DNA of 64,000 bases, taken from IMG/VR virus record IMGVR_UViG_2880389630_000005; one strand, given 5' to 3'. Positions 10,180-64,000 of this stretch are shown here, piece by piece (within the stretch, counting starts at the first letter, position 1; every line of letters begins with the position of its first letter). This stretch comes from a virus. Taxonomy: Duplodnaviria > Heunggongvirae > Uroviricota > Caudoviricetes. Made by a program: the position numbers and the translations under genes. The notes beneath the pieces were generated by a model. The model was not told the DNA's origin. It was given only the letters and a program-made list of their open reading frames with translations, and did no database searches.

Positions 10180-11528
10180 TGGGCTGGGCTGAAAACCTGC
10201 AAAACGCTTCCTTTCGTGGCGTGCAGTTTGAGGTGCTGAATACTGACGAACAAATCAGCCGCGACCATGCGGTCTATGAATACCCGTTTGTTGACGGGGC
10301 GGATTTGCACGACCTCGGACGCAAGGCGCGACCGTTCCGCATGACGGCGTTCCTGTGGGGCGATGACTATGAATATAAACTCGGGAAACTGACCGCCGCC
10401 CTGGATGAAGGCGGCGATGGTGAACTGATTCATCCGGTTTATGGCTCTGTGCCGTCGGTGATTGTGACCGGCTACAACATCCGCCATGACGCAGAAAGCC
10501 CGGACAGCTGCACCATTGACATGAGTTTTCTGGAAAACCGCACCGGTAGCGCGTTGTTCAGCACCCCGTTACCGGAGCTGTTCGCGCAACAGTTGTTTGA
10601 TGAACTGGACACTTTACAGGCGCGGTTAAGTGATTTTTTTGATGCCGTTACTGCACCTTTAAATACCGTTAACGGCATGATTAAAAAAGCCCAGACAGTG
10701 CGTGCCACACTGGTGAATACCCTGCTGTCGTTCAAAAGTGATTTTGTCTCCACTGTCGATAATATCGTGTCACTGGCAGGCGAACCCGGAAAATTTATCA
10801 ATGAACTGGCAGAGGTGCTGGAAATCCACACATCAGATGTCGGGCAACCGGTGCAGGTTCTGCAACGTGTTGATTCTGCCACCCGGACCGGGTTGGCAGG
10901 AGAGACGACCGTCGCCAGTTCTGCGACAGTGATGAACTGCTGGAATAAGGTCATCACTGATATGGATGAATTTGTTGCGTTGCCTGTTACCCTGGTCAGT
11001 GGCGATAAAGTAGCGGAGGTGGCACTTCCTGCGGATGCCTCGCCAGACGATGTGCAGGATGTGAAAGCAGTTTACGCAACACAGGCCGCATCTGAACTGG
11101 CCAGTGTTGCAATGGCGATACTGGTTGATGATGCGCAGTCAGAACAGCTTATACCGGCGGATATCGGGCGACTGGTCGGGGATGTGCGCACCCGCTTACA
11201 GGCTGCCATCACGCTGTTCCGTGAACGCTATGAAGGCGAACGCGAACGGATAACCGAAACCGCATCACCGCTGGGGCTGATGTACCCGGAAATCATTCAG
11301 AGCATGAAAAACGTGGCGGCAACCGTGCAGGATGTCGGCCTGCTGGTTCTGTCACGCCGCCCACCGCTGACGCAGAAACAGGTGCAGGCGGACAGCTGTC
11401 TGCTGTTGCTGGCGTGGCAGTGGTACGGCGATTACAGTCGTGCGGCAGAACTGCAACGCCTGAACCCGCAGTTACGTGACCCGAACAACATAACCGCCGG
11501 GGTGGTAATTAATGCCTACGCCAAATAA
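10179..11528 (+). CDS. DNA circularization protein (Mu N-like)
   Basis: 449 aa; N-terminal ASFRGVQFEV...GR...F motif matches the DNA circularization N-domain pattern. Confidence 0.7.
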   Translation: MGWAENLQNASFRGVQFEVLNTDEQISRDHAVYEYPFVDGADLHDLGRKARPFRMTAFLWGDDYEYKLGKLTAALDEGGDGELIHPVYGSVPSVIVTGYNIRHDAESPDSCTIDMSFLENRTGSALFSTPLPELFAQQLFDELDTLQARLSDFFDAVTAPLNTVNGMIKKAQTVRATLVNTLLSFKSDFVSTVDNIVSLAGEPGKFINELAEVLEIHTSDVGQPVQVLQRVDSATRTGLAGETTVASSATVMNCWNKVITDMDEFVALPVTLVSGDKVAEVALPADASPDDVQDVKAVYATQAASELASVAMAILVDDAQSEQLIPADIGRLVGDVRTRLQAAITLFRERYEGERERITETASPLGLMYPEIIQSMKNVAATVQDVGLLVLSRRPPLTQKQVQADSCLLLLAWQWYGDYSRAAELQRLNPQLRDPNNITAGVVINAYAK

Positions 11529-12723
11529 CGAAGACAAAATTAGCCTGGTCATTGCCGGAAGGTCGCATTCTGACTGGAGCAGTTATCGTATTGACAGCGA
11601 TTTCCTGAAAGCTGCCGACGGCTGGCAGCTTCAGCTGGGGCTGCCTGAAAAGGTGTTCCCGGCGGATATCGTCCGGGGCGCACAAATCCGGTTGCAGGTG
11701 GGAGATGAAACGGTGCTCAGTGGGCGCATAGACAGCGTGCGCCGTAGTGTGTCCCGTCAGAGCTGCACGCTGGCCCTGTCCGGGCGTGATGATGCCGCCA
11801 TCCTGGTGGACTGTGCCGCGCCGGTGTTCAGCGCCAACCAGCTGACGCTGGACGAGGTCATCGACAGGATAGTCAGACCACTGGGGATACAGCGCATCCG
11901 TATACAGGCGTCCGGTGTGTCACGTAATGACAAAGTTGTTATTGAGCCGGGGATGCGTGCGTGGGATGCACTGGCCAAAGCTGCCGCCGGTCGCGGCTTA
12001 TGGCCGTGGTTTGAGCCTGACGGGACGCTGGTTGTGGGTGGCCCTGACTACACCACCACGCCGGTGGATACGCTGATTCTGAAGCTGAACGGCACCGGGA
12101 ACAACGTGATGGAGCTGGACGATACCCGATCCATTAACGGCTGTTTCTCCGAACTGACGGTGCTGGCCCAGAGCCACGCCCGCCGCGCAGACAGCAAGAA
12201 ACAGGTGGCCGTGGTGCCGCTGGATATCTGGAACGAGGACGGCAGCGTGCGCACATTATCCGGGCAGGACAGCGGTAATACGGACTGTGGTCAGACAGGC
12301 ATTCATAACATGAAAGCCGTGGCCACCGACCCCACCGTGGATTATTACCGCCCGCAGATTATCACCCAGGGCGACACCAGCAATCTGGAGCAGGTGAGCT
12401 GGCGCGCAAAAAAAATGATGAGTGATGCCCGCCTGTCGGGGCTGGATATCGTCGCACTGGTTGCAGGTCATCGCACGGCAGATGGTGTTCTGTGGCAGCC
12501 CGGCCAGCGGGTGCGGATTGTCAGCGAACTCCACGGCATTGATGCCATCTTTTTCCTGATGGGGCGTGAGTTCAGCGGAGGCCGGAACGGGCAGACAACC
12601 CGGCTTCGCTTTAAGGAGGACGGCGTGTGGATACCTGACGCCTTCCCGCGCGAGAAGAAACGCCATCACCGCAGGGGCAAAAAGAAAAAAGAGGTCGCCA
12701 TTGTTAAGGTCTGGGAGAAATGA
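11512..12723 (+). CDS. baseplate hub protein (Mu P/gp44-like)
   Basis: 403 aa; conserved order after N-like gene. Confidence 0.6.
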   Translation: MPTPNNEDKISLVIAGRSHSDWSSYRIDSDFLKAADGWQLQLGLPEKVFPADIVRGAQIRLQVGDETVLSGRIDSVRRSVSRQSCTLALSGRDDAAILVDCAAPVFSANQLTLDEVIDRIVRPLGIQRIRIQASGVSRNDKVVIEPGMRAWDALAKAAAGRGLWPWFEPDGTLVVGGPDYTTTPVDTLILKLNGTGNNVMELDDTRSINGCFSELTVLAQSHARRADSKKQVAVVPLDIWNEDGSVRTLSGQDSGNTDCGQTGIHNMKAVATDPTVDYYRPQIITQGDTSNLEQVSWRAKKMMSDARLSGLDIVALVAGHRTADGVLWQPGQRVRIVSELHGIDAIFFLMGREFSGGRNGQTTRLRFKEDGVWIPDAFPREKKRHHRRGKKKKEVAIVKVWEK

Positions 12724-13373
12724 TGTGGGACAAGGTTAATCAGCGCGTACAGCAGGCACTGGCCGCCGTTCGCCAGGCATTCAGGGTGGTGATCGGTACG
12801 GTGGACAGTTCGACCAAAGTACAGCTGCTTCAGCTGAACGGGCTGGCAGGCGAACAGCTGGATGGTGCGGAGTATTTTCAGCATTACGGCCTCACCACAT
12901 CCCCGCCGCCCGGCTCAATGGGTATTGCCGTTCCGCTGAATGGCAATACCTCCCATACCGTCATCGTGGCCACAGAGCACGGCGCATATCGCCTGACGGA
13001 ACTGAAACCCGGCGAGGTGGCCCTGTATACCGACGAAGGCGCGAAAATCGTATTGAAGCGCGGGCGGATTATTGAAACAGAATGTGACGTTTACCGGGTG
13101 AAATGCAAACGCTATGAGGTTGAGGCAGAGGAGAACGCCGCATTCACGACACCGTTACTGACGGCCAGCGATAAGCTGACGGTGGAAGGTAAAATCACCG
13201 GCAACGGTGGCATGGCCATCCGTGGCGGCAAGGAATACGCCGCCACTTTTGAAGGCAACATCAACCATGTGGGTGGTGTGCTTACCTCCGTTGATGTCAC
13301 CATTAATGGCATTAAAATCGGAACACACAAACACCCAACCCCACACGGCATGTCTGACACGCCGGTTAATTAA
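12720..13373 (+). CDS. baseplate spike/assembly protein (Mu gp45-like)
   Basis: 217 aa; overlapping start (ATGA); position in baseplate cluster. Confidence 0.6.
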   Translation: MMWDKVNQRVQQALAAVRQAFRVVIGTVDSSTKVQLLQLNGLAGEQLDGAEYFQHYGLTTSPPPGSMGIAVPLNGNTSHTVIVATEHGAYRLTELKPGEVALYTDEGAKIVLKRGRIIETECDVYRVKCKRYEVEAEENAAFTTPLLTASDKLTVEGKITGNGGMAIRGGKEYAATFEGNINHVGGVLTSVDVTINGIKIGTHKHPTPHGMSDTPVN

Positions 13374-13426
13374 GTGCTGAACACCCTCACCTGATTCTGA
13401 CCTGTCCATGCTGCCAGACTGGCGGC

Positions 13427-13777
13427 ATGGACCAGACGATTTCACCTGCAACCGGCGACTACGAACGCCGCCGGATTTATACACTCCATAACGCGGTTTA
13501 TCTGCGACTGGCGACACCGCTTGGCAGTTACTGGGCGGATGCGTTGCTGGGGTCACGCCTGCACGAACTGAAGCGGGAAAAAGACGTTTCCCGTGTTCAC
13601 AGGCTGGCGGCGCAGTATGCCAGCCAGGCACTTCAGCCCCTGCTTGATGACGGGCGGGCAAAATCCATTACTGTTGACACGAAACCGGGTCAGCGCGGCT
13701 GGCTGTTGCTGTTAATCACCGTCACGGATAACGCGGGCACACCGCAGACATTTGAACACCCTGTGAGGATTATGTAA
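13427..13777 (+). CDS. baseplate protein (Mu gp46-like)
   Basis: 116 aa small baseplate component upstream of J-like gene. Confidence 0.55.
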   Translation: MDQTISPATGDYERRRIYTLHNAVYLRLATPLGSYWADALLGSRLHELKREKDVSRVHRLAAQYASQALQPLLDDGRAKSITVDTKPGQRGWLLLLITVTDNAGTPQTFEHPVRIM

Positions 13778-14856
13778 TGCCGTTTCCTGTTCCGGGCGTT
13801 GCTGAAAACACAGAACGCCAGCTACGTGATATCGCTAACGCCCTGCCGGGAGAAACCATCGACACCAGCGCTGACAGCGATTACCGCATTCGTGCAAATG
13901 CCGTATCCGGTGTGGCTGACGGGCTTTATATGCATCAGGGGTGGATACTCCGTCAGGTGTTTCCTGACACGGCAGACCCTGAATATCTGGAGCTGCACTG
14001 CCGCACGCGCAATGTTTTTCGTAAAAAAGCGACCGCCTCATCCGGTCCGGTGGTGATTACCGGCACTCCCGGTAAGACACTGCCAGCCGGTGCGGAAATT
14101 CGTGGTGAAGGTGTCAGCGTGTCCACCACAGCAGACTGCACCATCGGCCACGAAGGCAGCGCAGAGGTGACGGTAAAAAGCACTGCCACGGGGGCACTGA
14201 CGAATGCATCCACGACGCAGACGGCAACGCTGGTCAGTCCGCCGGAAGGCATCAACAGCACGGTGACGATTAAATCCCTGACCGGTGGAACAGACAGGGA
14301 AAGCAACGCCGACCTGCTGGCGCGTTATCTGGACATTCTGCGCAGGCCGCCCGCTGGCGGTAATAAATATGATTACAAACGCTGGGCGCTGGAAGTGGAT
14401 GGCGTTACCTCGGCATATGTGGAGCCATTACGTCGTGGACTGGGGACGGTTGATGTGGCCATTACGTCAGCCAATGACCTTCCCTCGCAGGAACTGATTA
14501 ATGCCGTGCTGGCACATATTGAGGAAGTCTGCCCGGTCACAGCAAAGGACACGATGGTACTGGCCCCGACGAAAAAAGCCGTTGATTTCGTTGTCCGGGT
14601 AAAAACCAGCGGCCTGACCGTTGAGCAGATAAAACCACAGATAACTGAAGTTATCACGGATTTTATGAACCGACTGGAGCCGGGGCAGGAATTAATTATT
14701 TCACAACTGGAAACTCAGATTTCATTAATTTCTGGCGTCAGTGACCGGCGGATTATTATGCCGTCAGATAATGTAAAAGCAGTTGTCAATGAATCCACAT
14801 GGGAGTGGCTGCGTCCGGGGAGTATTGATATCCAGCCATTTCCCCGGGAGAGTTAA
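13777..14856 (+). CDS. baseplate J-like wedge protein (Mu gp47-like)
   Basis: 359 aa; position and size of baseplate J family. Confidence 0.65.
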   Translation: MPFPVPGVAENTERQLRDIANALPGETIDTSADSDYRIRANAVSGVADGLYMHQGWILRQVFPDTADPEYLELHCRTRNVFRKKATASSGPVVITGTPGKTLPAGAEIRGEGVSVSTTADCTIGHEGSAEVTVKSTATGALTNASTTQTATLVSPPEGINSTVTIKSLTGGTDRESNADLLARYLDILRRPPAGGNKYDYKRWALEVDGVTSAYVEPLRRGLGTVDVAITSANDLPSQELINAVLAHIEEVCPVTAKDTMVLAPTKKAVDFVVRVKTSGLTVEQIKPQITEVITDFMNRLEPGQELIISQLETQISLISGVSDRRIIMPSDNVKAVVNESTWEWLRPGSIDIQPFPRES

Positions 14857-14859
14857 TAC

Positions 14860-15432
14860 ATGAATACGGTTGATTTATTTCGTGCCATGTTACCACCGGT
14901 CAGCTATGACCCGAACGGGAAATATATTTCAACAGAACTGAACGCAGAAGCAGCCATTATGGATGAAGTAAAAGCGTCAGCTGCACGAGTGCTTGCATCT
15001 GTCACACCATTTTACGCATCCATGACACTGTCTGACTGGGAACGAGTGTATGAAGTAATACCCCGCGATGGTGCCACACAGCAGGAACGCCGAGAAAATA
15101 TTCTTATAAAGATGGCTGCAACTGGTGGGTTATCTATCCCTTATTTTAAACAACTTGCAGCCAGCCTCGGGTACACCATAACAATTACTGAACTCCATCC
15201 ATTTAGAACGGGGGTAAACCGATGTGGTGATCGTCTCTATATAACAGATGCCCGATGGATTTGGCAGGTTAATGTCACAGGAAGCAAAACGCCAGCTTAC
15301 AGATTCAGAACCGGAGTATCTGCTGCCGGGGAACCGTTACTTTCCTTTGGTGCCCCTGTACTGGAAGAAACATTTAAAGAGCTTAAACCCGCTTTTACTT
15401 ATTGCCATTTCACATATAAGGAGGAGCAGTAA
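14860..15432 (+). CDS. tail protein (Mu gp48-like)
   Basis: 190 aa between baseplate J-like gene and tail fiber. Confidence 0.55.
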
Positions 15433-17810
15433 TGCAAAATCTGATGCCCCCGATAAATACACCGGATCAATTGTTTCATGATGGTGACCCCACTCAGGGG
15501 ATAGAAGGAACCATCGTAACTGCTGATTATTTAAACAATCAGCAGGGGGCAATCCGTGATTTACAGCAGGAACTCCTTAATGTTCTTGGTAGTGTACATA
15601 TTCAACCTGCCCCCCAAAAAACGGATCAGCTACTTACCGCGCTTCGTGCGCTGCTGTTAAGCCGCAAGAATCCGTTTGGCGATATCAAATCGGATGGCAC
15701 GGTAGAACGCGCTCTTGAAAATCTGGGGTTACAGGATGTAAAAGCTGGTTCATTGAACAATCTGTACACTAACCATTCCCGTAGTGTCTTAATGGAATTG
15801 CCGTTATTATTCCCGGACTACGATACGGTGCTGGCTGCTCAGTCTGGTGCGGAATATATGTATCCACAGGGATTTGTGGTGACAGGAGAAAAAATCTATC
15901 TGAGTTATACCGTTGAGCCAAAGCAGACACGGAACGTTATAGTTCAGTACACAACATCCGGCGAATATGAGGGATATTATTATGTCGATAATGGAGGTCG
16001 TGGCGTTGTCAGCGAAGGCCTTGTGGTGACAACGGATTACGGTGGATTACGTTTGTTCATGTCAGGAGAAAATGGATTACTGAAACAGTTTTCGCTTGAT
16101 GGGGCAATTTCTGGTTCAGTATTGCCGTTAATTGATGAACATGATGTCGGTGTTTACAACCAGTTCAGCTATCGTAAAAACCGCTGGGTGGTTGAACAGT
16201 CAGCGCCGGAAGTGGGAGGCCTGATCACCCGCACAGTATTTGCGGTGTATGATTTTCAGTTTCGTCGGACAGGGACATTCACATTACCGTTGCATGATTC
16301 CGGATATATCACGGAAAGCACAGACAGCTATGCAAGACGCTTCACAAAACGTCAGGGAATTGCTGTGGGAGACGATTATATTGCCTGTTCTTATGGTGGC
16401 TATTTTAATACCGGGGCATCAGCCGGATTTAACCAGTTTCAGGGGGTTAAGGTCTTTTCTCCGGATGGAGTAAAGCAGCAGGAATCCATTCTTCATCCCC
16501 AAAAAATGATAGATGTGCTTACCAGGCAGGGTTTTACACCTTCGCGCATTGAGAACGAAGGAATTTGTATTTCTGACGACGGCGGCAGTATATATTCGCT
16601 TTATATCTTTCTGGAGCGTGGGTTACCACAGGCTTATCAGAAAGGAATTGTTCTGATGAAAGAGTTCAGTACTGGCAGAGATGCTATTGATTTTCGTCAG
16701 GCAGCCTGGTTGTACACGGGGTTTGATGTGTCTCATGCCAGTATTGGAACATTTCCCCGTAGTGCCCAGGGGTTGGTAAACCCGGTGTTGGGGACGGTAT
16801 TCACATCCCTGTCTGAAATTCTGGCATATATGCGTTCTGTGAGTCAGAAATGGTTTTGTCTGCATACAACCACGACACCGATTAAAGATCTGAGTGGAAA
16901 TGACATTCCTGCTGACAATTATGTGTTCATCAAGAATGCTAATAACCAGACATTCTATATAACGCAGGAGTCAGCTGAAGGTGGAATAAAATATAAAGCT
17001 GTCACTACAGACAGCGGAGAATATGGTTTTCAGCGACAAAGAGAGGCAATCTGGTCCAATGTTATCACCATCGCACAAAAGAGCGATGGTGAGGATCAGT
17101 TTAATCGTATTATCGCTGCCTCGAAAAGTGGTTCGGGTAAAAATCAGGATAAAATACTGGTAGTTGACCAACAGGCATCAGAGGGGAATAACACGCTGGT
17201 AATTGGCGGTGGTTCATCTGTGTTCAGGTCAGCGACAGTGATTGATTTTGCAACGAATCAGGATGCAAATGCCACAGGAGGAGAAAAGAGATGGCGCATA
17301 GATTCATCAGGAAATCTCCGCCCTTATACAGATAATACGTATTCGATCGGTTATGCCTCATGGCGACCCGCACAGGTTTATTCAGCTACGGGAAGTATCA
17401 GTACATCAGACCGGACTCATAAACAGGACGAAACAATTCTGTCGGATGCAGAAAAAAGGGTTGCCAGAAAGCTGCTCGGGTATATCTGTCGGTTCCGTTT
17501 CAGGGATGCAGTGTCCAGCAAAGGGAACGCAGCCAGATGGCATGTAGGAGTGATTGCTCAGGACGTACAGAAGGTCTTCTCCGAGGAAGGGCTGGACGCT
17601 TTTGATTACGGTATTTTGTGTCGTGATGAATATCCGGCGGAATATGAAGTGGTTTACGGGACTCGTATGGAGCTTGGTTCTGACGGACTCCTTACAATGG
17701 AAGAATACGATACCGGAGAGCGCAAGCTGGTCAGGGAGGCTGGTGAAATAATGTCTGTAAGGAATGATGAGCTGCATTATTTCATGCTGGCATCGCTGTC
17801 TGGCCAGTGA
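15432..17810 (+). CDS. tail fiber protein with C-terminal intramolecular chaperone domain
   Basis: 792 aa; conserved fiber N-terminus; C-terminal about 130 aa resemble the peptidase S74-type auto-cleaving chaperone domain. Confidence 0.7.
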
Positions 17811-17821
17811 ATAATATTAAT

Positions 17822-17846
17822 GTAAGGAGCGATATAAGCTCCTTAC
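17822..17846 (+). terminator. hairpin downstream of tail fiber gene
   Basis: GTAAGGAGC-N7-GCTCCTTAC inverted repeat just after stop; weak T-tract. Confidence 0.4.
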
Positions 17847-17926
17847 ATCATGCATTTTATGCTGCGATTATGCGTTCTCCTGTTGTTTGTTGCTGAGAGT
17901 GAAACACCGGAAACATAACTAATAAG

Positions 17927-17984
17927 TTAGCGCCCAATTCTGGGCTTTTTGGCTGAGATCTCCCCGCCCAGAATTGGGCGCTAA
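17927..17984. repeat. 19-bp perfect inverted repeat with 20-bp spacer
   Basis: TTAGCGCCCAATTCTGGGC ... GCCCAGAATTGGGCGCTAA; lies in the junction between Mu-like module and CP4-like genes. Confidence 0.6.
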
Positions 17985-18055
17985 TTAGCCCAGAAAAAAA
18001 CGCGAAGTTACACTGGTACCGTCAGCATCATGCTGACAGCAACTGGTATGAAAAC

Positions 18056-21019: not shown

Positions 21020-22078
21020 TTATTTGCGCAAGGCCCGGCAAATCAGATTCGATAGCAACTCAAGCTGATGTGCCGTTTCCATGTTCAGCCACACATAACC
21101 ATAGATTGGTGTTTCCAAGACTTTCAGGTCATGGTGGTTATCGAGCAACTGACGCAGCTCTTCCACAGCATCGTTCAATTTTTCCGTATTGGCAAAAACC
21201 GGCTGCGGATTACCTTCGTACAGCGCATGAACAAGGCTCAGCAGTATTTGCTGCATCATGTGCTGGGTATCACGAAGTTTTTGCGCGTTCAATAACACGA
21301 AATGGCTGGGGCGCGTGGCCCAGTATGCATTGATTTGCAACTCCAGCATACAAACCAGATTGCGATTAATGGTCTGGATACCTTCATATATCGATTTGGG
21401 AATACGGGTTTCTTTGCTGGCGGGCGCAATCAGCCCACGCATTTTCACGGCATCGGTCAGGAGTTTTTGTAGATGGCTTTCCAGACGTGGGCGTTCGAGT
21501 AAGTTCGGTGAGAATGCAGATTGATAGACCCGATTATACTCGGTCAGACTTTTCGCCAGTTGAATGCGCCAGTGGATGAACGCCCGTTGTGGCCAGATAC
21601 CGGTAAACAACATTGCCAGTAAAGAGCCGAGGATCACATCGCCGCTTCGCCATAACGCCGTATCAATTTCACCTGTCGGGGAACCCACAACAATTGCCAG
21701 CGTCACCCCAATCAATAATCCTTGATACGGTTTCTTGCCCAGCGCCAGCCAACCGCAAAGAAACATCGCCGCCGCGCACCAGACTAACATCAGCGGTAAC
21801 GAAATTAACTCCAGTTGCAGAGCGATAAGACCTAAAATCGAACCCAACACCGTACCGCCAATACGTTCGAAGGCACGAGGGACAACGTTCCCCCAGAACG
21901 AGATTGGCCCCATAATCACCACCATGGTGACCAGCGGCCAGGTGCTTTCCGGGATAGTAAACAGGCGGATAATGAGAAAAGTGAGCAGGAATGCCAGCGC
22001 GACCCGAGTACCATGCACAATGCGGTAATGGCGGTATACCCGGATTTCAAACGGGCTTAATGACTTATCGGCACGCAC
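21020..22078 (-). CDS. yeeA: inner membrane protein YeeA
   Basis: Multi-pass membrane protein; GTG start (VRADKSLSPFEIRVYRHYRIVHG...) gives about 352 aa. Confidence 0.75.
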   Translation of the reverse strand: MRADKSLSPFEIRVYRHYRIVHGTRVALAFLLTFLIIRLFTIPESTWPLVTMVVIMGPISFWGNVVPRAFERIGGTVLGSILGLIALQLELISLPLMLVWCAAAMFLCGWLALGKKPYQGLLIGVTLAIVVGSPTGEIDTALWRSGDVILGSLLAMLFTGIWPQRAFIHWRIQLAKSLTEYNRVYQSAFSPNLLERPRLESHLQKLLTDAVKMRGLIAPASKETRIPKSIYEGIQTINRNLVCMLELQINAYWATRPSHFVLLNAQKLRDTQHMMQQILLSLVHALYEGNPQPVFANTEKLNDAVEELRQLLDNHHDLKVLETPIYGYVWLNMETAHQLELLSNLICRALRK

Positions 22079-22275
22079 GCAGAAACTCCGTAATGAAGAT
22101 GAAAAGCGCTCATAACACATCTGTCGGCCAGAAGGCGCGCCTCTGAGTTATCCGACGGACATACCGGGAACAGTGTAATTTCCCGGCAGGAGCGAAAAAT
22201 TTGAAAGGCGCATCTTACTCTTTTCGCTTTCAAAAAAAGAGTGGTCTTCGCGTTAACACACCGCCCTGAGATGAA

Positions 22276-22749
22276 TTAGTGATGTTTTGGCTGCACCGCA
22301 ACATACATTTCGATATCCCAGTACCCATCTTCCGCGCCATTGTTCAAGTAAACCTCGAAGCAGGGCTTTGGTAACATTTCATAAGCACTGTCCTGCAAGA
22401 GGCTATTAAAGAACTGATACCAGGGTTTAGCAAAATCATCACCGACTACACGAGCCACCGCCACCGCATACTGACCACCTGAAATTTCTGTCAGAATGAC
22501 GCCCTCACTGTTTTCGGGGAGCGTAAAGTTATTCGGTACCGTCACGACGGTGTCGCAGCGTAATTTTTCGGCGGGTGTTTCATCTGGATTGTCGTAATAG
22601 ACAGCAACCCACTCCTTCGGCACAATATTTTTGCTATCTATCCACATCATCAACTGCTCAAAACCTTTCTTTACCATCTGCTCCCACGGGCCAACAAGAT
22701 GGAAACCTGCAACGGTACGTTTATCTTCCTGCTTAATCTCGTAGTTCAT
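22276..22749 (-). CDS. sbmC: DNA gyrase inhibitor SbmC (GyrI)
   Basis: 157 aa; matches remembered SbmC; LexA box upstream. Confidence 0.9.
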
Positions 22750-22765
22750 GACGCCTCCACTAACA

Positions 22766-22781
22766 CTGTTTTTATATACAG
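22766..22781. promoter_or_regulatory. LexA (SOS) box upstream of sbmC
   Basis: CTGTTTTTATATACAG fits CTGT-N8-ACAG, about 20 bp upstream of sbmC start. Confidence 0.6.
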
Positions 22782-22867
22782 TATAGTTGCAATATTAAAA
22801 CCACAAGGAATGAGTGTTGATTATGCGAGCAGACTCGCACTCCTGCCAGTCTGCTGCAAAAGAAAGG

Positions 22868-24040
22868 TCAGGCCTTATGGTGGAAATAATCACTCAGGCG
22901 GGAAAACATGCTGCCTTCCCCGACAGATTCCAGGGTAACCAGCGGCCAGTGCGCCACCTGTTTATCACGGTCGTAAAGTTCAATTTCCCCTACCCGCTGA
23001 TGGGCGCTAATTGGCGCGGTGAGTTCTTTACCATCAAGGGTATATTTGGCTTTGATATGTGGAATTTCGGCTTTCGGTAGCACCATCCAGAACTCTTGTT
23101 CCGTTCCCAGGGCGATATTTTCTTTATCACCATACCAGATGCGTTCCGTACCGACCTTTTTCCCACGGTGCAAAATTTGCACCGTAGTAAAGTTTTGTTG
23201 CCCCCAACGCAGTAATTTTCTTGCCTCTTCCTCACGACCTTTTGCGCTGTCAGCCCCCATTACCACTGCAATGAGGCGACGCTGCCCGTCTACAGCCGAA
23301 GCAATAAGATTAAACCCGGCACCAGAAGTATGGCCCGTTTTCAGGCCGTCAACATTCATGGTTTTATCCCACAATAACCCGTTACGGTTTTGCTGGGTGA
23401 TACCGTTCCAGGTGAGGCTTTTCTCACTGTACATATGATAAAACTCGGGCTCGCCGTGGATGATAGCGCGAGAAAGCACGGCTAAATCATAAGCCGAGCT
23501 ATGCTGGCCAGGTGCATCCAGACCATGCACTGTTTCAAAATGCGTATCCTTGAGATGCAGCTTCTCGGCATAGTTGTTCATCATTTCAACAAACTGCCGT
23601 TGCCCACCGGCAATATAGTCAGCCAGAGCAACACAAGCGTCATTTCCGGAATCCACAATTAAACCACGGCTTAAATCACGTACCGATACGCGATCGCCCT
23701 CTTTCAAAAACATCAGTGAAGAACCGACAAACACCGGATTATCTTTCGCCCACGCATCACGCCCCACGGTGACAATATCGTCTGGCGTAATGCGATGACT
23801 ATCGATAGCGCGATCCACGACATAGCCCGTCATCAGCTTTGTCAGGCTGGCGGGATTGCGCTGTTGATGCTCATTACCCGCGGTGAGAATCTGACCGGTG
23901 GTGTAATCCATCAATACCCAGGACCCGGCATGAATCTCTGGAGGCTGAGGTGAAAAAGGAATGTTTTCCGCCGCAAAACCAGACGATAAATTAAAAACGA
24001 ACAAAGAAGCAGCAATAATAAGACGGCGTTTCAACAGCAA
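22868..24040 (-). CDS. dacD: D-alanyl-D-alanine carboxypeptidase DacD (PBP6b)
   Basis: 390 aa with signal peptide; SxxK (SLTK), SGN and KTG motifs; matches remembered DacD. Confidence 0.9.
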   Translation of the reverse strand: MLLKRRLIIAASLFVFNLSSGFAAENIPFSPQPPEIHAGSWVLMDYTTGQILTAGNEHQQRNPASLTKLMTGYVVDRAIDSHRITPDDIVTVGRDAWAKDNPVFVGSSLMFLKEGDRVSVRDLSRGLIVDSGNDACVALADYIAGGQRQFVEMMNNYAEKLHLKDTHFETVHGLDAPGQHSSAYDLAVLSRAIIHGEPEFYHMYSEKSLTWNGITQQNRNGLLWDKTMNVDGLKTGHTSGAGFNLIASAVDGQRRLIAVVMGADSAKGREEEARKLLRWGQQNFTTVQILHRGKKVGTERIWYGDKENIALGTEQEFWMVLPKAEIPHIKAKYTLDGKELTAPISAHQRVGEIELYDRDKQVAHWPLVTLESVGEGSMFSRLSDYFHHKA

Positions 24041-24827
24041 ACCCTCAGGTGTTTCAAATAGCTGTTCTTTTTACGGAAATACTTATGAACTGGCTGGAAT
24101 AAAGTGCAAGAAAATGTGACTACTATCTCATTTTTATCTGACATGATCTGTTGCCACTCGCTGCCAAATTGTCGCGCTAAAGCTGATTAGCACGGTGATA
24201 TTTGATACTCTGGCAGACAGCAGAAATAACGGATTTAACCTAATGATGAATGACGGTAAGCAACAATCTACCTTTTTGTTTCACGATTACGCGCAACACC
24301 CCTGAGAACCGCCATGAACAAGGGTTTCATGATTTGTGATTTTAGTTTGGTACGCAATTTGGTACACAACACAATTTTCACTTCAGCGGGTAGTCATCAA
24401 ACTCACCATAACGAGCATCGTTGATGATGTATGTGATCACCACAAATATCACATCTGGACTAGTTCCGTCTTCATGCGCAGGTATTTGTTCACGCCTCCC
24501 TTTCTGCAAATCCTAAAGATGAGATTTTGGGGTTTTGGGATATCTTTTTATCCTCAGTTCTCTATCCATTCTACAAAGCAGTAATGAACCATCACCGTGT
24601 GATAGTGAGGCATCCGCTACGTTAAGCGCAGAGAAATGATGCAGTGGTGGTCGGACTGGATTGATGAAAAGGTGTAGCAACCAACATTGCTATATCTCAG
24701 ATAGCACAAAGCCTTGCAATCCAGTGCAAAGCTTTGTGTGTCTCAGTTTTTATAAATTCTTAAGCAAGAATTATAGTTATAACTATTATGTAAATTTTAT
24801 GATATATATTGTATTTAAATGCTGGTT

Positions 24828-26909
24828 TTACTTATTAACCCAACCTGTAGCATTTGTGTTGCTTTCCTTTATATAAAGTACTGTATTTCCACCTCCATCA
24901 GAACGAGTGTAAATAGAACCAACTGGTGCTCCAACTCCGCTAGATGTTGGGTTGCCTTCTTGCCCAAATATCACAAGTGAGCTTTTATCTGTAGCTTGAT
25001 TATTCTGTGTGGCTGATGTTCCAAATGAAACATTCCCTATAAATGACACGCTCTTACAGCTTGATGTAGCAAATATACCAACTGATGGTTTATTATTTGC
25101 AACGCCATCACGAATTTGATTTGAACTAACAATTACATTTTCTGCACCAGAGTCAATTCGTATGCCATTATGGTTATTATCTGCGGTAGAAACCCCAACT
25201 ATAATGTTTGATTGAATAGTAACATTTGAATATTTACCATTAATATGAATCCCATGCAGGGAAATATTTCTAAAGATGTTGCTAGAAATTACAACATCAT
25301 GCGAAAAACCAGACCCTATAAATTCTTCTGCATTAGTTTCAGAAATCCATAAAGAACTTGATGTTCCTGAATCGTATTCATTATTAGAGATGATTGATTT
25401 GTTAATAAAATCACCTTTGAAAAAACCGATTCCGCCTCTTGCTGTGTTTCCAGTGACAGTTAGTCCTGAAACCCATCTTGCGTCTACTGCATATGATTGA
25501 GACTCTGTAATAAACATGGAATTGTTGGATATTACGATATCTTCATGAAATGCATCTGATGTATCTGTATATGGATATGTAGGTGCAGCCAGAAGAATCG
25601 GGGATCTAACGCCTTCAAAATAATTGCCAACAATGCGCCCCCTCCTTGCCCCCTGTGGTTTTGATGATGATGGGAATGGGGTTACATGAACTCCTCGCGC
25701 GGTACTGTTATAGAAAGAGCATCCGCTAACCACCCAATCATACCAGTTGAAAACCCTTACCCCGGCAAAGAGCATTCCATCGAACCTGCAGTTTATGACC
25801 CTTATATTTTTGTCCTGATTCCCATATGAATTAGCATGGTTCCCAACCCCCACCCCCCACGCCCCAAACCCAGTGGTGGTATTTTGTGGATTTGAACCAA
25901 AATAACAGTTATCAACAAGAACATTGATGTTTGGGTAATAATCGCCAAGAGATTCAATCCCCGGATCTAACTGGATCGCTTCTGAATAATTTCGGTTGGA
26001 AAGTGGTTTGAAGCCAAGAAACTTACAGTCTCTTATAATCACCCCTTGCCCGTCAGCAATATCTACAGCATGAAAATCGACTACATCAAGAAATGTTACT
26101 CCAACAATAGAAAGATTTCTTGGTGAGGAGGCTGCAATGATGTCAAAAGGATCTGTAGGGTGGTCTTGTCCTCCTCCATCTAGTATTCCGCCTGTTATTT
26201 TAATGTTAGTGCCAGTATTAGGGCTTATTCTCAGCATGACGTCATTAGAAAAATTACGTTTAATGGTTACGCCATCAGTCATCTTTAGGTGAGTATTTGA
26301 TTTTATTTGCAACTCAGAAAGCAAAGTATATATGCCTGGTAGTGAAAACTGTAGTGTACCTCCTCCAATGCTATATATTGCATCTAGCGCAAATTGCAGA
26401 GCTACTTTATTGTCAGCATTCGATGGATGAGCACCGAAGTCAAGAACATCAATGATTTGTTGGTTCTTTTGGTGTTGAGTTTGATTTGCTGCTCCGGGGA
26501 ATGGTTGTTTCACCGACACTAATTCATCCCCATCACCATCATCAAAGGATGCCAACCTCTTCTGAAACTGATCAGGGTCATACTTCAGCACATTAGGAAA
26601 ATAAAACTGCTGCGCACCATATGCATCATAAACAGCCATAGAATGGCCCTGTACAGTAACGAATTTGGCAATCTGTCCGTTATATACAGGGTAACCAGCA
26701 GCGTTAATGATGATTGGTTGCGAAACAGGAACGTGAGAACCATCTTCGTTCTCTACATAAACTTGAATCTGGTTTTCAGGATTTACCGGGTCAGTGTCAA
26801 TTTTACCGATATAAATTTTGCCATTGGCTACGGCTTTAAAAGAACGCGCCATAGTGAAGAGTTGCGAAGGCATACTCACTACAACATTGGCATTTATCGA
26901 ATCTGTCAT
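24828..26909 (-). CDS. P22-like tailspike protein
   Basis: 693 aa; N-terminal ~115 aa closely match the P22 gp9 head-binding domain ([22 protein letters not shown]...VLKYDPDQ); divergent beta-helix C-terminus. Confidence 0.85.
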
Positions 26910-28857: not shown

Positions 28858-29577
28858 ATGAAAAAAAGCAATGGACTCACATTAAAACTTGACGGAACCA
28901 CCCCTGGCCAGCTGTCAATGGCTAAGTTGGTCAAGTATATGTCTGCTCTCGTAGATCTATACGGTTCTGCAGATTCTGTTCACTTCGACTGTGTAAGTGA
29001 AGGATCGGCTGACTTAAATGCATGGGTCGATAATGATATTTGTTATAACGCTGTCATAGCAAGGGCCTCTCTCTCAGCCAAAGAGAAATCACCCGCGTAT
29101 CAAAAAATTGTTAATTTACTGGAACATGATGGTTTTTCAGCGAAACTACTCGGACGAAACCACTCAACCATTATCGCATTCCCGCGAGTAAAAAAGGAGC
29201 CAATCCCTTTACTCATAACAAAAACGTCAGAAGTTCAAGGAAGGCTATACAGTGTTGGTGGAAAAGACAACTCAATACCTGTGCGTATTGAGGGAGCCAA
29301 CGGTGAAACATTCAAGTGCGAGGCAACCCCTGATTTGGCGGCAGCTCTTGGGTCCCATCTATTCAAATATATTAGAGTTAAAGGAGATGGGTGCTGGGAA
29401 AAAAAGAACAACAAATGGGAGCTAAAGAAACTAAAAATAACTTCATTTGTATTGCTCAAAAAATCATCACTCAAGGATGCTATTAATGCTATCAAGCAAG
29501 TTCCTGGAGATCAGTGGTCCGAGGAACGCGATGTTGATTCAATCCTTAGGACTCTGAGGAAGATAAATTGCGAGTAA
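28858..29577 (+). CDS. hypothetical protein, first gene of accessory cassette
   Basis: 239 aa; AT-rich; no motif recognised; co-directional with mnt; 3' end overlaps next ORF by 10 nt. Confidence 0.5.
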   Translation: MKKSNGLTLKLDGTTPGQLSMAKLVKYMSALVDLYGSADSVHFDCVSEGSADLNAWVDNDICYNAVIARASLSAKEKSPAYQKIVNLLEHDGFSAKLLGRNHSTIIAFPRVKKEPIPLLITKTSEVQGRLYSVGGKDNSIPVRIEGANGETFKCEATPDLAAALGSHLFKYIRVKGDGCWEKKNNKWELKKLKITSFVLLKKSSLKDAINAIKQVPGDQWSEERDVDSILRTLRKINCE

Positions 29578-30116
29578 TTTTAGATACCAATATTCTGGTA
29601 TACCTACTATCAGATATAGAACACGATTATAGATTATCTGACCCTATACTTGGTTCTGAGATTCCAGATGCCAAAAGAAGAGCAGAAGCTCTTGTTGATC
29701 GAATAGATAACAAGAACGGGACAATCATCGTTCCAACTCCTGTATTGGCGGAGTTTTTAGTTGGAATCCATAAAGATTACCAACAAGAAAAACTGAATGT
29801 TATCAAATCGTTATCGTGCTTCGAGACTGTATCATTTGATGAGTTGGCTGCTATTGAATGCGCATCGATACCAACATTAAAAGAATTAAGGAAAATTAGC
29901 ACAGAAGGTACAGCAAATAAAATTAAGTTTGACAGACAAATAATAGCAATTGCAAGAGCAATTAATGCTGACGAGGTATGGACTCATGATAAGGGAGTGT
30001 TTGAGCGTTGCAAAAGTCTCAATATTCCTGTGTTCACATTGTCATCAATAGAACCAATTCCGGTTCAAAGTCTCATGGAGTTCTTACACGATTCAGACGA
30101 TCAGAGATTACACTAA
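29568..30116 (+). CDS. PIN-domain nuclease-like protein (VapC-like fold)
   Basis: 182 aa; N-terminal ILDTNIL, Glu in VLAEF, and FDRQIIAIARA...THDKGVF resemble the PIN acidic-residue signature. Confidence 0.55.
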   Translation: MRVILDTNILVYLLSDIEHDYRLSDPILGSEIPDAKRRAEALVDRIDNKNGTIIVPTPVLAEFLVGIHKDYQQEKLNVIKSLSCFETVSFDELAAIECASIPTLKELRKISTEGTANKIKFDRQIIAIARAINADEVWTHDKGVFERCKSLNIPVFTLSSIEPIPVQSLMEFLHDSDDQRLH

Positions 30117-30243
30117 AATATAATTTTTATGCATCCGTGATAATTACATCCGTCACGGATACATAAAGCTATAGCCAAAAGTGGACAAACCTTTATCTCA
30201 CTCCAAACCATCTGGTATCCTGCGTAAAACTAAGGAGGTTGGT

Positions 30244-30666
30244 GTGTTTGGTATATTAACGAGAAGCAAGATAAAAAAATTAAGGGCAGAACTCGCCGAA
30301 ACACAAAAACTGGCTTCACATTTTTACAAAATGAAATACGACGCTGAAGAGCGTGCATTTGTTGAGTTATGCGATTTATCTATTCGTATGGGAGTAGAGC
30401 CAGATGTAGCGGCAAAAACCCAACAAGGCATTGATATACTTGCAGATGTTGTTTTAAACAGGCAATATGCGTTTTATCTAAACGAGAAGGCCATTCAGAT
30501 TTACTCTCAAATCTTCCTCCTAGAAAAAAGAAGAGGAACTCACGATCGAGAAGAGTGGTTAAATGAAGTTGTTAAAAAATCTGGCTGGGAAGTTGTTTCA
30601 TCAGAGCTACCTCTTATTTGTGCTGATTTAATCGAAGAGGCAAAAGAGCGCCTATCCGATGGCTAA
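30244..30666 (+). CDS. hypothetical protein, third gene of accessory cassette
   Basis: About 140 aa from GTG preceded by AAGGAGG RBS (ORF track's first start is 30181); AT-rich. Confidence 0.45.
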   Translation: MFGILTRSKIKKLRAELAETQKLASHFYKMKYDAEERAFVELCDLSIRMGVEPDVAAKTQQGIDILADVVLNRQYAFYLNEKAIQIYSQIFLLEKRRGTHDREEWLNEVVKKSGWEVVSSELPLICADLIEEAKERLSDG

Positions 30667-32799: not shown

Positions 32800-33346
32800 T
32801 ACTGCCCTCCGAGATATTTATTAATCAAGTCATCATCAGAAAGCTGCTGTTGAGACGGTTGTATGTCCTTCCCGTATTTCTGTTGCATACGTTTCTGAGC
32901 CATCTCAGTGGTTTTTATGATTGTTTTGATAGCTGCTCTGGCTGATTTTTCAGACTGATTTGGGGACAAACTACCAATAGCATCCATTACCTTTTGCCCC
33001 TCGGCATTACTTAAAGCCCCCATCCCTTTCATCTGCTGAATGCCAGATAAGAATCCCTGAGATTTCAGTGTGTCAACCAGAGTTTCTGTATCAGCAGCCT
33101 CTGTTCCTGGAATGAATCTACTCGATAGTGGGTTTAGGTTTGTTCCGAAATATCCCGTGAATCCTGGGCTATTAAGAACTTTTGTAGCCGTCTCTATCGT
33201 TCTGGAGAGATTATCCATTCCAGAGTTGTACGCATCGGCCTTATCTCGCTTTGCCTGCTCCATAGCTTGCTGATTGAAGTGGTTTACTGAATTTGGCCAC
33301 CTGAACAGAGGTGATATGCTCACCTCAGAACAACACAGGTGCCATA

Positions 33347-34494
<1,148 letters not shown>

Positions 34495-35336
34495 CTCGGT
34501 GGCCAGTTTTTGTTGACCACTTCAGATTCTGCAATCTCTTGTCCTGCAATTCAGCAAGTTTTAAGGCATTAGTTTCATTTGCGATGAGTCTGTCGTATTT
34601 CTTGTCCTCTAATTCCATCCGACGAAGATTGACATTTTGTTGCGCAATATTGTTGCTTGCCCACCCTCTGGCATTTGTCATGTCATTATTACGGATTGTT
34701 TCGTTAATTCTTTGCTGCTCCTGCTGGCGACCAACCATCTTGTCCTGATAATCCAGCATTTTATCCGGACCAACAGCCCCTAGCGTCATAGTAGTCAGCA
34801 TGTGTGATAGCTGCTCTGGATTCTGGATACCTGTCTGAATCATCCAGTCAGCATTCGCCCCCACGCGATTTAACCTGTCCTTGTTGTCAGTAATGAATTT
34901 ACTGTAGGCTTCCGGTCCCTGAGAAAGAGCGACGTTAGCCCTCATGGCTAAATCGCCCATATCGTTGCGTTGCTGATCATTAAGACCGGAAAACGCCTGT
35001 TGTGCCTGTGCAACAAACGCTGGATTTTCCTGGGCAAACTTAAATAGTCCCGATGGATCACCAGAAGCCCATGCATCAGCGTGAACCTTATTGAACGCAC
35101 TAATAGCTTTCTGTTGCTGTTCCTGCTTATAAATATCAGCAACTCCAGCCAGACCACGTAACGCGGTCAGACCAACGTTATTTGCACCTGATCGAGCCAG
35201 TTCATTGTTTTCGCGGATCAGACCAAGCGTTGCGTTAATGTCGCTTGCCTTTGGCGCATTCTCGTTTTGCGCACCAATGCCAGCCAGAAAACCACCAGAA
35301 TTAATACCCTGTTGCCACGTAGCCATTGATTACCCC

Positions 35337-63808: not shown

Positions 63809-64000
63809 ATGACCGATACCAGCCTGATTCCTGAGAAAGAAGTGATGAACAAGCTCGGTGTTTCATCACGTCAGACAATCTGGAACTATACCAAACGGCA
63901 CGGATTTCCGAAGCCAGTCAGAACCCACCCCAAATCATACCTTCGTGAAGCTGTTGAAGGGTGGATTCTTAACGGTGGCGTTAATCAGAAATGCTCCTGA
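63809..64000 (+). CDS. AlpA/Xis-like excisionase or regulator
   Basis: 63 aa; FPKP...W..EVEGW pattern of AlpA-family HTH proteins; rightmost gene, integrase expected beyond window. Confidence 0.55.
   Translation: MTDTSLIPEKEVMNKLGVSSRQTIWNYTKRHGFPKPVRTHPKSYLREAVEGWILNGGVNQKCS

Follow-up and report, generated by a model that had tools for sequence, protein, structure and literature searches.

Genes and features between dacD and the tailspike gene

The DNA analysed here, a single stretch of 64,000 bp that we call the window throughout, contains a gap of ~0.8 kb between dacD and a tailspike gene. The original prediction described this gap as a strongly AT-rich, noncoding interval at the probable end of a prophage. 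The gap is real and lacks a long open reading frame, but it is not empty of gene sequence, as it holds the 5' end of sbcB, a humD pseudogene fragment and the 17-codon 3' end of an integrase gene. The features of the interval and its two neighbours are the following:

22868-24034, minus strand: dacD (PGAP annotation; the longest open reading frame extends to 24040)
24035-24242, no strand: host dacD-sbcB divergent intergenic region, not phage (100% identical to strain R14, where dacD and sbcB adjoin)
24243-24305, plus strand: orphaned host sbcB 5' end (read directly and aligned with the annotated R14 sbcB start; frame checked)
24279-24291, plus strand: attR crossover core TTTCACGATTACG, 13 bp, common to attR (window), attB (R14) and attL (E. 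coli p11A)
24292-24377, plus strand: attP phage arm with two direct arm-type repeats (motif search)
24345-24355 and 24357-24367: the arm-type repeats GTTTGGTACGC and ATTTGGTACAC, consensus TTTGGTACRC
24381-24641, minus strand: humD', a truncated and inactivated fragment of a UmuD/HumD homologue (NCBIfam NF051876)
24624-24677, plus strand: 3' fossil of an IntS-type integrase gene, last 17 codons (24624-24674) and stop (tblastn)
24696-24758, plus strand: hairpin and U-run, likely an intrinsic terminator (RNA fold)
24751-24827, no strand: AT-rich downstream flank of the tailspike gene, 77 bp, which adjoins the tailspike stop and travels with the tailspike
24828-26909, minus strand: tailspike gene, 692 aa, the final intact gene on this side of the prophage (PGAP annotation in p11A)

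Strong AT-richness applies to just one part of the interval. The GC content is 39.3% for the interval and 49.1% for the whole window; by part, it amounts to 39.4% in the host-derived 24041-24243 and 43.3% in the phage-derived 24292-24700, and only the final 127 bp (24701-24827) are strongly AT-rich, with 26.8% GC. A tRNA scan finds no tRNA genes in the whole window, and thus the attachment site does not target a tRNA. No Rfam family is detected in 23900-25000 at E ≤ 1, and a scan of the interval for consensus promoters and terminators returns two weak promoter-like sites (fewer than in shuffled sequences) and no terminator.

The tailspike matches PHROG tailspike families with E = 5e-115, the matches covering residues 3-130. 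Its receptor-binding C-terminal part (24828-25440) is rare: of 5,426 complete E. coli genomes, only 23 have it, and several of these bear the label O25b:H4-ST131. The 3' part of the gene has no match in the phage collection. The tailspike is possibly specific for O25b. The same tailspike is found in prophages with two different integrases, the sbcB type and the argW/IntS type, which suggests cassette exchange.

The host/phage junction and the attachment core in sbcB

We searched window positions 23900-24900 against the 5,426 complete E. coli genomes. In the majority of those sampled, the match is confined to 23900-24291, and dacD and sbcB are annotated as neighbours; 405 of the 5,426 match at least 80% of the query, i.e., to ~24750, having the module next to dacD. 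In the empty-site strain R14, identity is 100% over window positions 21400-24291, and the sequence beyond is unrelated. The empty-site comparison thereby sets the host/phage junction at 24291/24292, within the interval in which a prophage end had been expected. Host DNA makes up the first 251 bp of the interval (24041-24291), and it takes in the start of sbcB, which had gone unrecognised in the original prediction. The sbcB ATG lies at 24243 and is followed by MMNDGKQQSTFLFHDY, giving 16 codons at 24243-24290; identity to the host sequence extends to G24291, with which sbcB codon 17 begins. The stranded frame continues into phage DNA as far as a stop at 24303-24305, with MMNDGKQQSTFLFHDYAQHP as its would-be product, and annotation should not treat the short sbcB-like start at 24243 as a gene.

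The prophage boundary can thus be fixed to the base, at 24291/24292, with the core at 24279-24291. This core, TTTCACGATTACG, occurs as a single copy in the window and as exactly two copies in the p11A locus (L001 8224-8236 and 48066-48078), where the copies lie 39,842 bp apart and bracket the prophage. In the alignment of attR, attB, and attL, it lies within a 46-bp stretch of imperfect homology (34/46 identical). The core is the reverse complement of CGTAATCGTGAAA, the attP core published for phages 2851 and Sf101, both of which integrate in the 5' end of sbcB (PMC4159516), and so the attachment site is located in this interval, as predicted. The integrase of Sf101 shares 99% identity with its counterparts in HK544, mEp234, and 2851 (PMC4159516).

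The integrase end of the prophage lies past the window, again as predicted. The window terminates at the stop codon of an xis-like gene, the reading frame of which is complete. Over 18012-64000, the window matches the reverse strand of the E. coli p11A chromosome at 100% identity, except that it has 1,253 bp more, made up of an insertion sequence (1,250 bp; described below) and its 3-bp target duplication. We therefore read attL from p11A, which differs from the window's strain left of 18012 and lacks this insertion sequence. Mapping onto p11A places the predicted attL of this strain at ~65,374, which lies ~1.37 kb beyond the last base of the window, and gives the prophage a length of ~41.1 kb with the insertion sequence counted in; by the same mapping, the last 20 bases of the window (63981-64000) are also the 3' end of int. 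In this phage type, the xis-like helix-turn-helix gene (window 63809-64000) converges with int, their 3' ends overlapping by 20 bp, and attP is located upstream of int, unlike in lambda and P22.

In p11A, the prophage terminates with an integrase gene whose product is identical to Sf101 Int at 385 of 392 residues (98%), and divergent to this gene lies a full sbcB gene encoding 474 aa, which PGAP annotates as intact. Upstream of the core, attP brings an ATG of its own with 11 substitute codons (MTDTDKQPTFL), after which the core encodes FHDY; at the p11A attL, the phage provides this ATG and the substitute codons MTDTDKQPTFLFHDY. The substitute sbcB start expected at the attL of the window's strain is ATGACAGACACAGATAAACAACC... 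From FHDYE onward, the hybrid SbcB of p11A is host SbcB, with all 464 remaining positions identical. FHDYE presumably includes Asp15 and Glu17 of the exonuclease I active site, and the presence of active-site residues would explain why the stretch is sufficiently conserved for use as an attachment site. The 181 bp of phage arm that precede the hybrid sbcB contain no match to a sigma-70-like promoter in a consensus scan. Of the hallmarks of the sbcB-integrating module, the core and the insertion in the 5' end of sbcB are present in the window, and the integrase of the Sf101/2851 type and the second core, beside int and the rest of sbcB, are found in p11A.

The attachment module, its gene fossils and the empty cargo slot

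On the phage side of the junction, the module 24292-24750 is 91-95% identical in mEp234, in the Stx phages 2851/1717 and their relatives, and in Sf101, and ~415 complete E. coli genomes hold it. In the free Sf101 genome, the arms of both prophage ends are contiguous around the core. The Sf101 attP contains five copies of the arm-type repeat in the same orientation, three beside int and two on the arm that corresponds to the one seen here, and the repeats are kept in all five aligned relatives. By number alone, they are weakly above chance: TTGGTACRC is found three times in the window against 0.69 expected, and 3 of 100 shuffles reached three. The weight that we give to the repeats comes from their clustering and conservation and not from the motif count, and by analogy they are presumed to be arm-binding sites of the integrase.

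Next to the arm, the minus-strand humD' stretch matches the HumD model NF051876 with E = 8.6e-27 over profile positions 46-128 of 129, its score of 93.6 being below the cutoff of 120. The N-terminal third is missing, and an in-frame stop occupies 24513-24515. No full-length, uninterrupted frame reaching the cutoff of the HumD/UmuD (S24 peptidase) family is present, and the stretch is a homologous pseudogene fragment; in relatives, PGAP annotates it as a S24 peptidase/HumD pseudogene. The humD-like translation has no match in Pfam and no sequence match in the PDB, and the NCBIfam HumD model alone detected it. A humD-like fragment is also found between int and gtrA in the P22-like Salmonella phages MG40 and BTP1.

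Overlapping the humD' stretch on the plus strand is the integrase fossil, which tblastn aligns with residues 368-384 of K-12 IntS at 88% identity (E = 2e-7); its DNA aligns with the intS 3' end of both K-12 CPS-53 and the ST131 argW prophage. The hairpin that follows (24696-24746) has a folding energy of -22.1 kcal/mol (z = -4.6), none of 200 shuffles folds as well, and UUUUUAUAAAUU comes directly after the stem. A stable GC-containing hairpin followed by a U-run is the sequence signature of a Rho-independent terminator; the consensus terminator scan missed it owing to bulges, and it was found by folding. The stem is kept in all relatives, and its counterpart in K-12 CPS-53 and in the ST131 argW prophage lies immediately after intS. 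Originally, the hairpin was likely the terminator of the old int gene. In its present position, we infer that it would stop transcription coming from the orphaned sbcB promoter, a termination function predicted from the fold. That sbcB-type and argW-type phages have this fossil and hairpin in common suggests that an older integrase gene gave way to the sbcB module. In annotation, the humD-like and int-like pieces are to be treated as fossils and not as conversion genes.

Relatives diverge from the window right after 24750. What follows the module in each of them is listed here:

Sf101: oacB
E. coli AHB1: gtrA, gtrB and a gtrC-like gene
STEC799: nleG7
mEp234: the module runs directly into a side tail fibre gene

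Conversion genes had been expected in this position from the P22 gene order, and the relatives at sbcB do hold them there, gtrABC in AHB1 and oacB in Sf101. In the window, only the 77-bp flank separates the module from the tailspike stop. This flank and the 3' part of the tailspike gene are 98.9% identical in the ST131 strain 4993, an argW-integrated relative in which a full-length intS beside argW abuts the same tailspike without cargo. Because the 77 bp are nearly identical in this cargo-less argW prophage, the boundary at 24750/24751 is an empty cargo (moron) slot and not a decayed cassette.

The junctions of two relatives differ from this arrangement. In the AHB1 prophage at sbcB (L007 ~2780-2795), no exact 13-bp core is present at the dacD-side junction, and the flanks align at 91%; this junction may be a variant or decayed attR. 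In STEC799 (L008 1595-3456), int, the core, and the att arm are contiguous in the chromosome as they are in free-phage attP, with nleG7 beside them, an arrangement that fits a prophage inserted into a prophage or a tandem at sbcB.

Integration model, alternative readings and related prophages

The original prediction was right in its main points, with the coding sequence of sbcB as the target that it had not named: the interval is an ordinary junction of a P22-like prophage sitting in the start of E. coli sbcB. More specifically, we are highly confident that it represents attR, the int-distal junction, of a P22-like (Lederbergvirus-type) prophage ~41 kb long, inserted by a tyrosine integrase at codons 13-17 of sbcB, the gene of exonuclease I. 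The site and the mechanism are already known, and the interval is a further example of a published integration system. The assignment to the P22-like phages agrees with the P22-type virion genes annotated by PGAP in p11A (tailspike N-terminal head-binding part, capsid, gp4/gp10, and ejection proteins).

In the mechanism read from the sequence, a tyrosine integrase recombines attP with sbcB codons 13-17 at the 13-bp core, with excision of the prophage, binding of the integrase to the repeats and transcription of the hybrid sbcB as predicted steps. Host DNA ends at 24291, and the phage arm of attP starts at 24292; of the five TTTGGTACRC repeats, this arm has two, and after them come the truncated humD, the 3' end and terminator of the older IntS-type int, the empty slot, and the tailspike gene. 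At attL beside int, as read from p11A, the ATG and substitute codons supplied by attP rebuild a complete 474-aa sbcB frame, and the hybrid gene would be expressed from there; at attR, the original sbcB promoter and the first 16 codons stay stranded. The int' fossil and hairpin, common to sbcB-type and argW-type phages, could plausibly serve as a homology patch for swapping tailspike and cargo cassettes.

A further, doubtful extension is that integration rewires sbcB. The hybrid gene, which lacks the native promoter and the first 12 residues, is placed behind the 181-bp arm, divergent from int and with three putative arm-type sites, so that exonuclease I levels, and hence recombination and repair, could depend on the state of the prophage, while the stranded promoter would fire into the prophage end. 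We consider it improbable that these effects occur.

Several other readings of the interval were weighed. That all of it is ordinary host intergenic DNA, with the prophage boundary elsewhere, agrees with the identity of 24041-24291 to empty-site strains, but this identity stops at 24291, the free phages Sf101, mEp234, and 2851 match from 24292 onward, and the rest of sbcB directly adjoins this very point in empty-site strains; the empty-site genomes and the phage matches together rule this reading out, and we assign it practically no probability. It is also very unlikely that the module contains a working small gene, either an 82-aa plus-strand frame (24336-24584, homologous to Sf101 orf17) or a short functional HumD. 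The plus-strand frame is annotated as a hypothetical protein in Sf101, a 43-aa piece carries the name UmuD in one mEp234 record, and the region is 91-95% conserved among phages; however, recent spread of the attachment module explains that conservation well enough, deletions of 1 bp in STEC799 and 67 bp in AHB1 disrupt the frames, the humD frame contains a stop and lacks profile positions 1-45, Pfam returns nothing significant for the plus-strand frame, and PGAP annotates a pseudogene here in other genomes. The 82-aa frame was rejected as a gene on account of the frame-breaking deletions.

The presence of gtrABC (AHB1) or oacB (Sf101) in exactly this position, and the resemblance of 24620-24750 to a K-12 CPS-53 stretch bounded by the intS 3' end and a point ~80 bp before gtrA, could be taken to mean that the interval holds a decayed gtrABC or oac cassette which once lay between the tailspike gene and the attachment site, as the original prediction had considered. 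Yet the conserved module lies just 77 bp from the tailspike stop, and tblastn with six proteins of relatives, among them GtrA, GtrB, GtrC, OacB, and the MG40 acetyltransferase, detects no gtr, oac or nleG remnants in 24000-24900, all matches having E > 0.25; with the gtr and oac proteins there is no match below E = 0.56 in that stretch and none at E ≤ 1e-3 anywhere in the window, and by this measure it carries no conversion cassette. The remnants that do exist are those of humD and an older integrase gene, and we regard a decayed cassette as extremely improbable. Somewhat less remote, though still unlikely, is the idea that the junction is a dead scar of a locked prophage whose attachment site no longer works. 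An IS3-family insertion in the gene of a DNA transfer protein, by which this copy is probably defective as a virus, would agree with it. Against it, the core and arm repeats are intact, int and the xis-like gene are annotated as intact in p11A, and the xis-like frame is complete in the window; moreover, the insertion lies far from the recombination module, so that excision should still be possible.

Among known systems, the closest is Sf101, a P22-like phage that integrates in sbcB (PMC4159516) and has the same 13-bp core, the arm repeats, and the ~460-bp module (91.6% identity), with the same gene order of tailspike, cargo slot, att module, and int. It differs in having oacB between module and tailspike, where the slot is empty here, and in the receptor-binding part of the tailspike. 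The Stx2c phage 2851 and other sbcB-integrating Stx phages of E. coli O157 use the same site with an identical attP core and a module that is 91.5% identical over 459 bp; in contrast to the prophage described here, they are long-tailed lambdoid phages with other late genes and cargo (stx, nleG), and the integration module alone is shared. sbcB is one of four standard Stx-prophage insertion loci in E. coli O157, and since it is a known Stx-phage site, recognising non-Stx occupants aids the reading of site-occupancy PCR.

With the argW/IntS-type P22-like prophages (K-12 CPS-53 and ST131 4993), the prophage has in common the int 3' end, the terminator hairpin, and the position of the cargo slot; ST131 4993 additionally shares the 77-bp flank and the tailspike at 98.9%. 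The argW type carries a full-length functional integrase and an attachment site in the tRNA-Arg gene argW, whereas only 17 codons of that integrase are left here and a different integrase lies at the opposite end of the prophage. P22 itself, with tailspike, gtrABC, attP, and int, follows the same order of tailspike, conversion slot, attP, and int; it integrates in thrW and its int reads toward attP, whereas here attP is upstream of int, the target is protein-coding, and gtr is absent. The interval illustrates two features already known for temperate phages, namely that an attachment site in a protein-coding gene may carry a replacement gene end, so that the host gene survives integration, and that conserved junk beside attP can link the exchange of cargo and tailspike cassettes between phages with different integrases.

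The insertion sequence mentioned above is an IS3-family element of 1,250 bp (window 33275-34524), with ends TGAAGTGG...CCACTTCA and a 3-bp target duplication, GAT. We take this element to resemble IS911. It lies within a gene that PGAP names a P22-type 'DNA transfer protein' (presumably an ejection protein) and is absent from the otherwise identical p11A prophage. A low-GC patch at ~29.4-30.6 kb (35-38% GC) falls in 28858-30666, where three plus-strand genes encode a 239-aa hypothetical protein, a PIN-domain protein, and a 140-aa hypothetical protein. Flanked by the ant/arc immunity region and the ejection-protein genes, and not on the minus strand that carries the late genes, these three genes occupy the place where P22-like phages usually have superinfection-exclusion or defence cargo. 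At the left end, window positions 1-18011 hold a second, unrelated phage module on the plus strand, a contractile-tail set with a head protease, tail sheath, tape measure, baseplate hub and wedge, and a 792-aa tail fibre/spike; left of the position corresponding to 18012, p11A has different DNA, a CP4-44-like island with ISEc12 and a dynamin-family gene, and so it is not the strain of the window.
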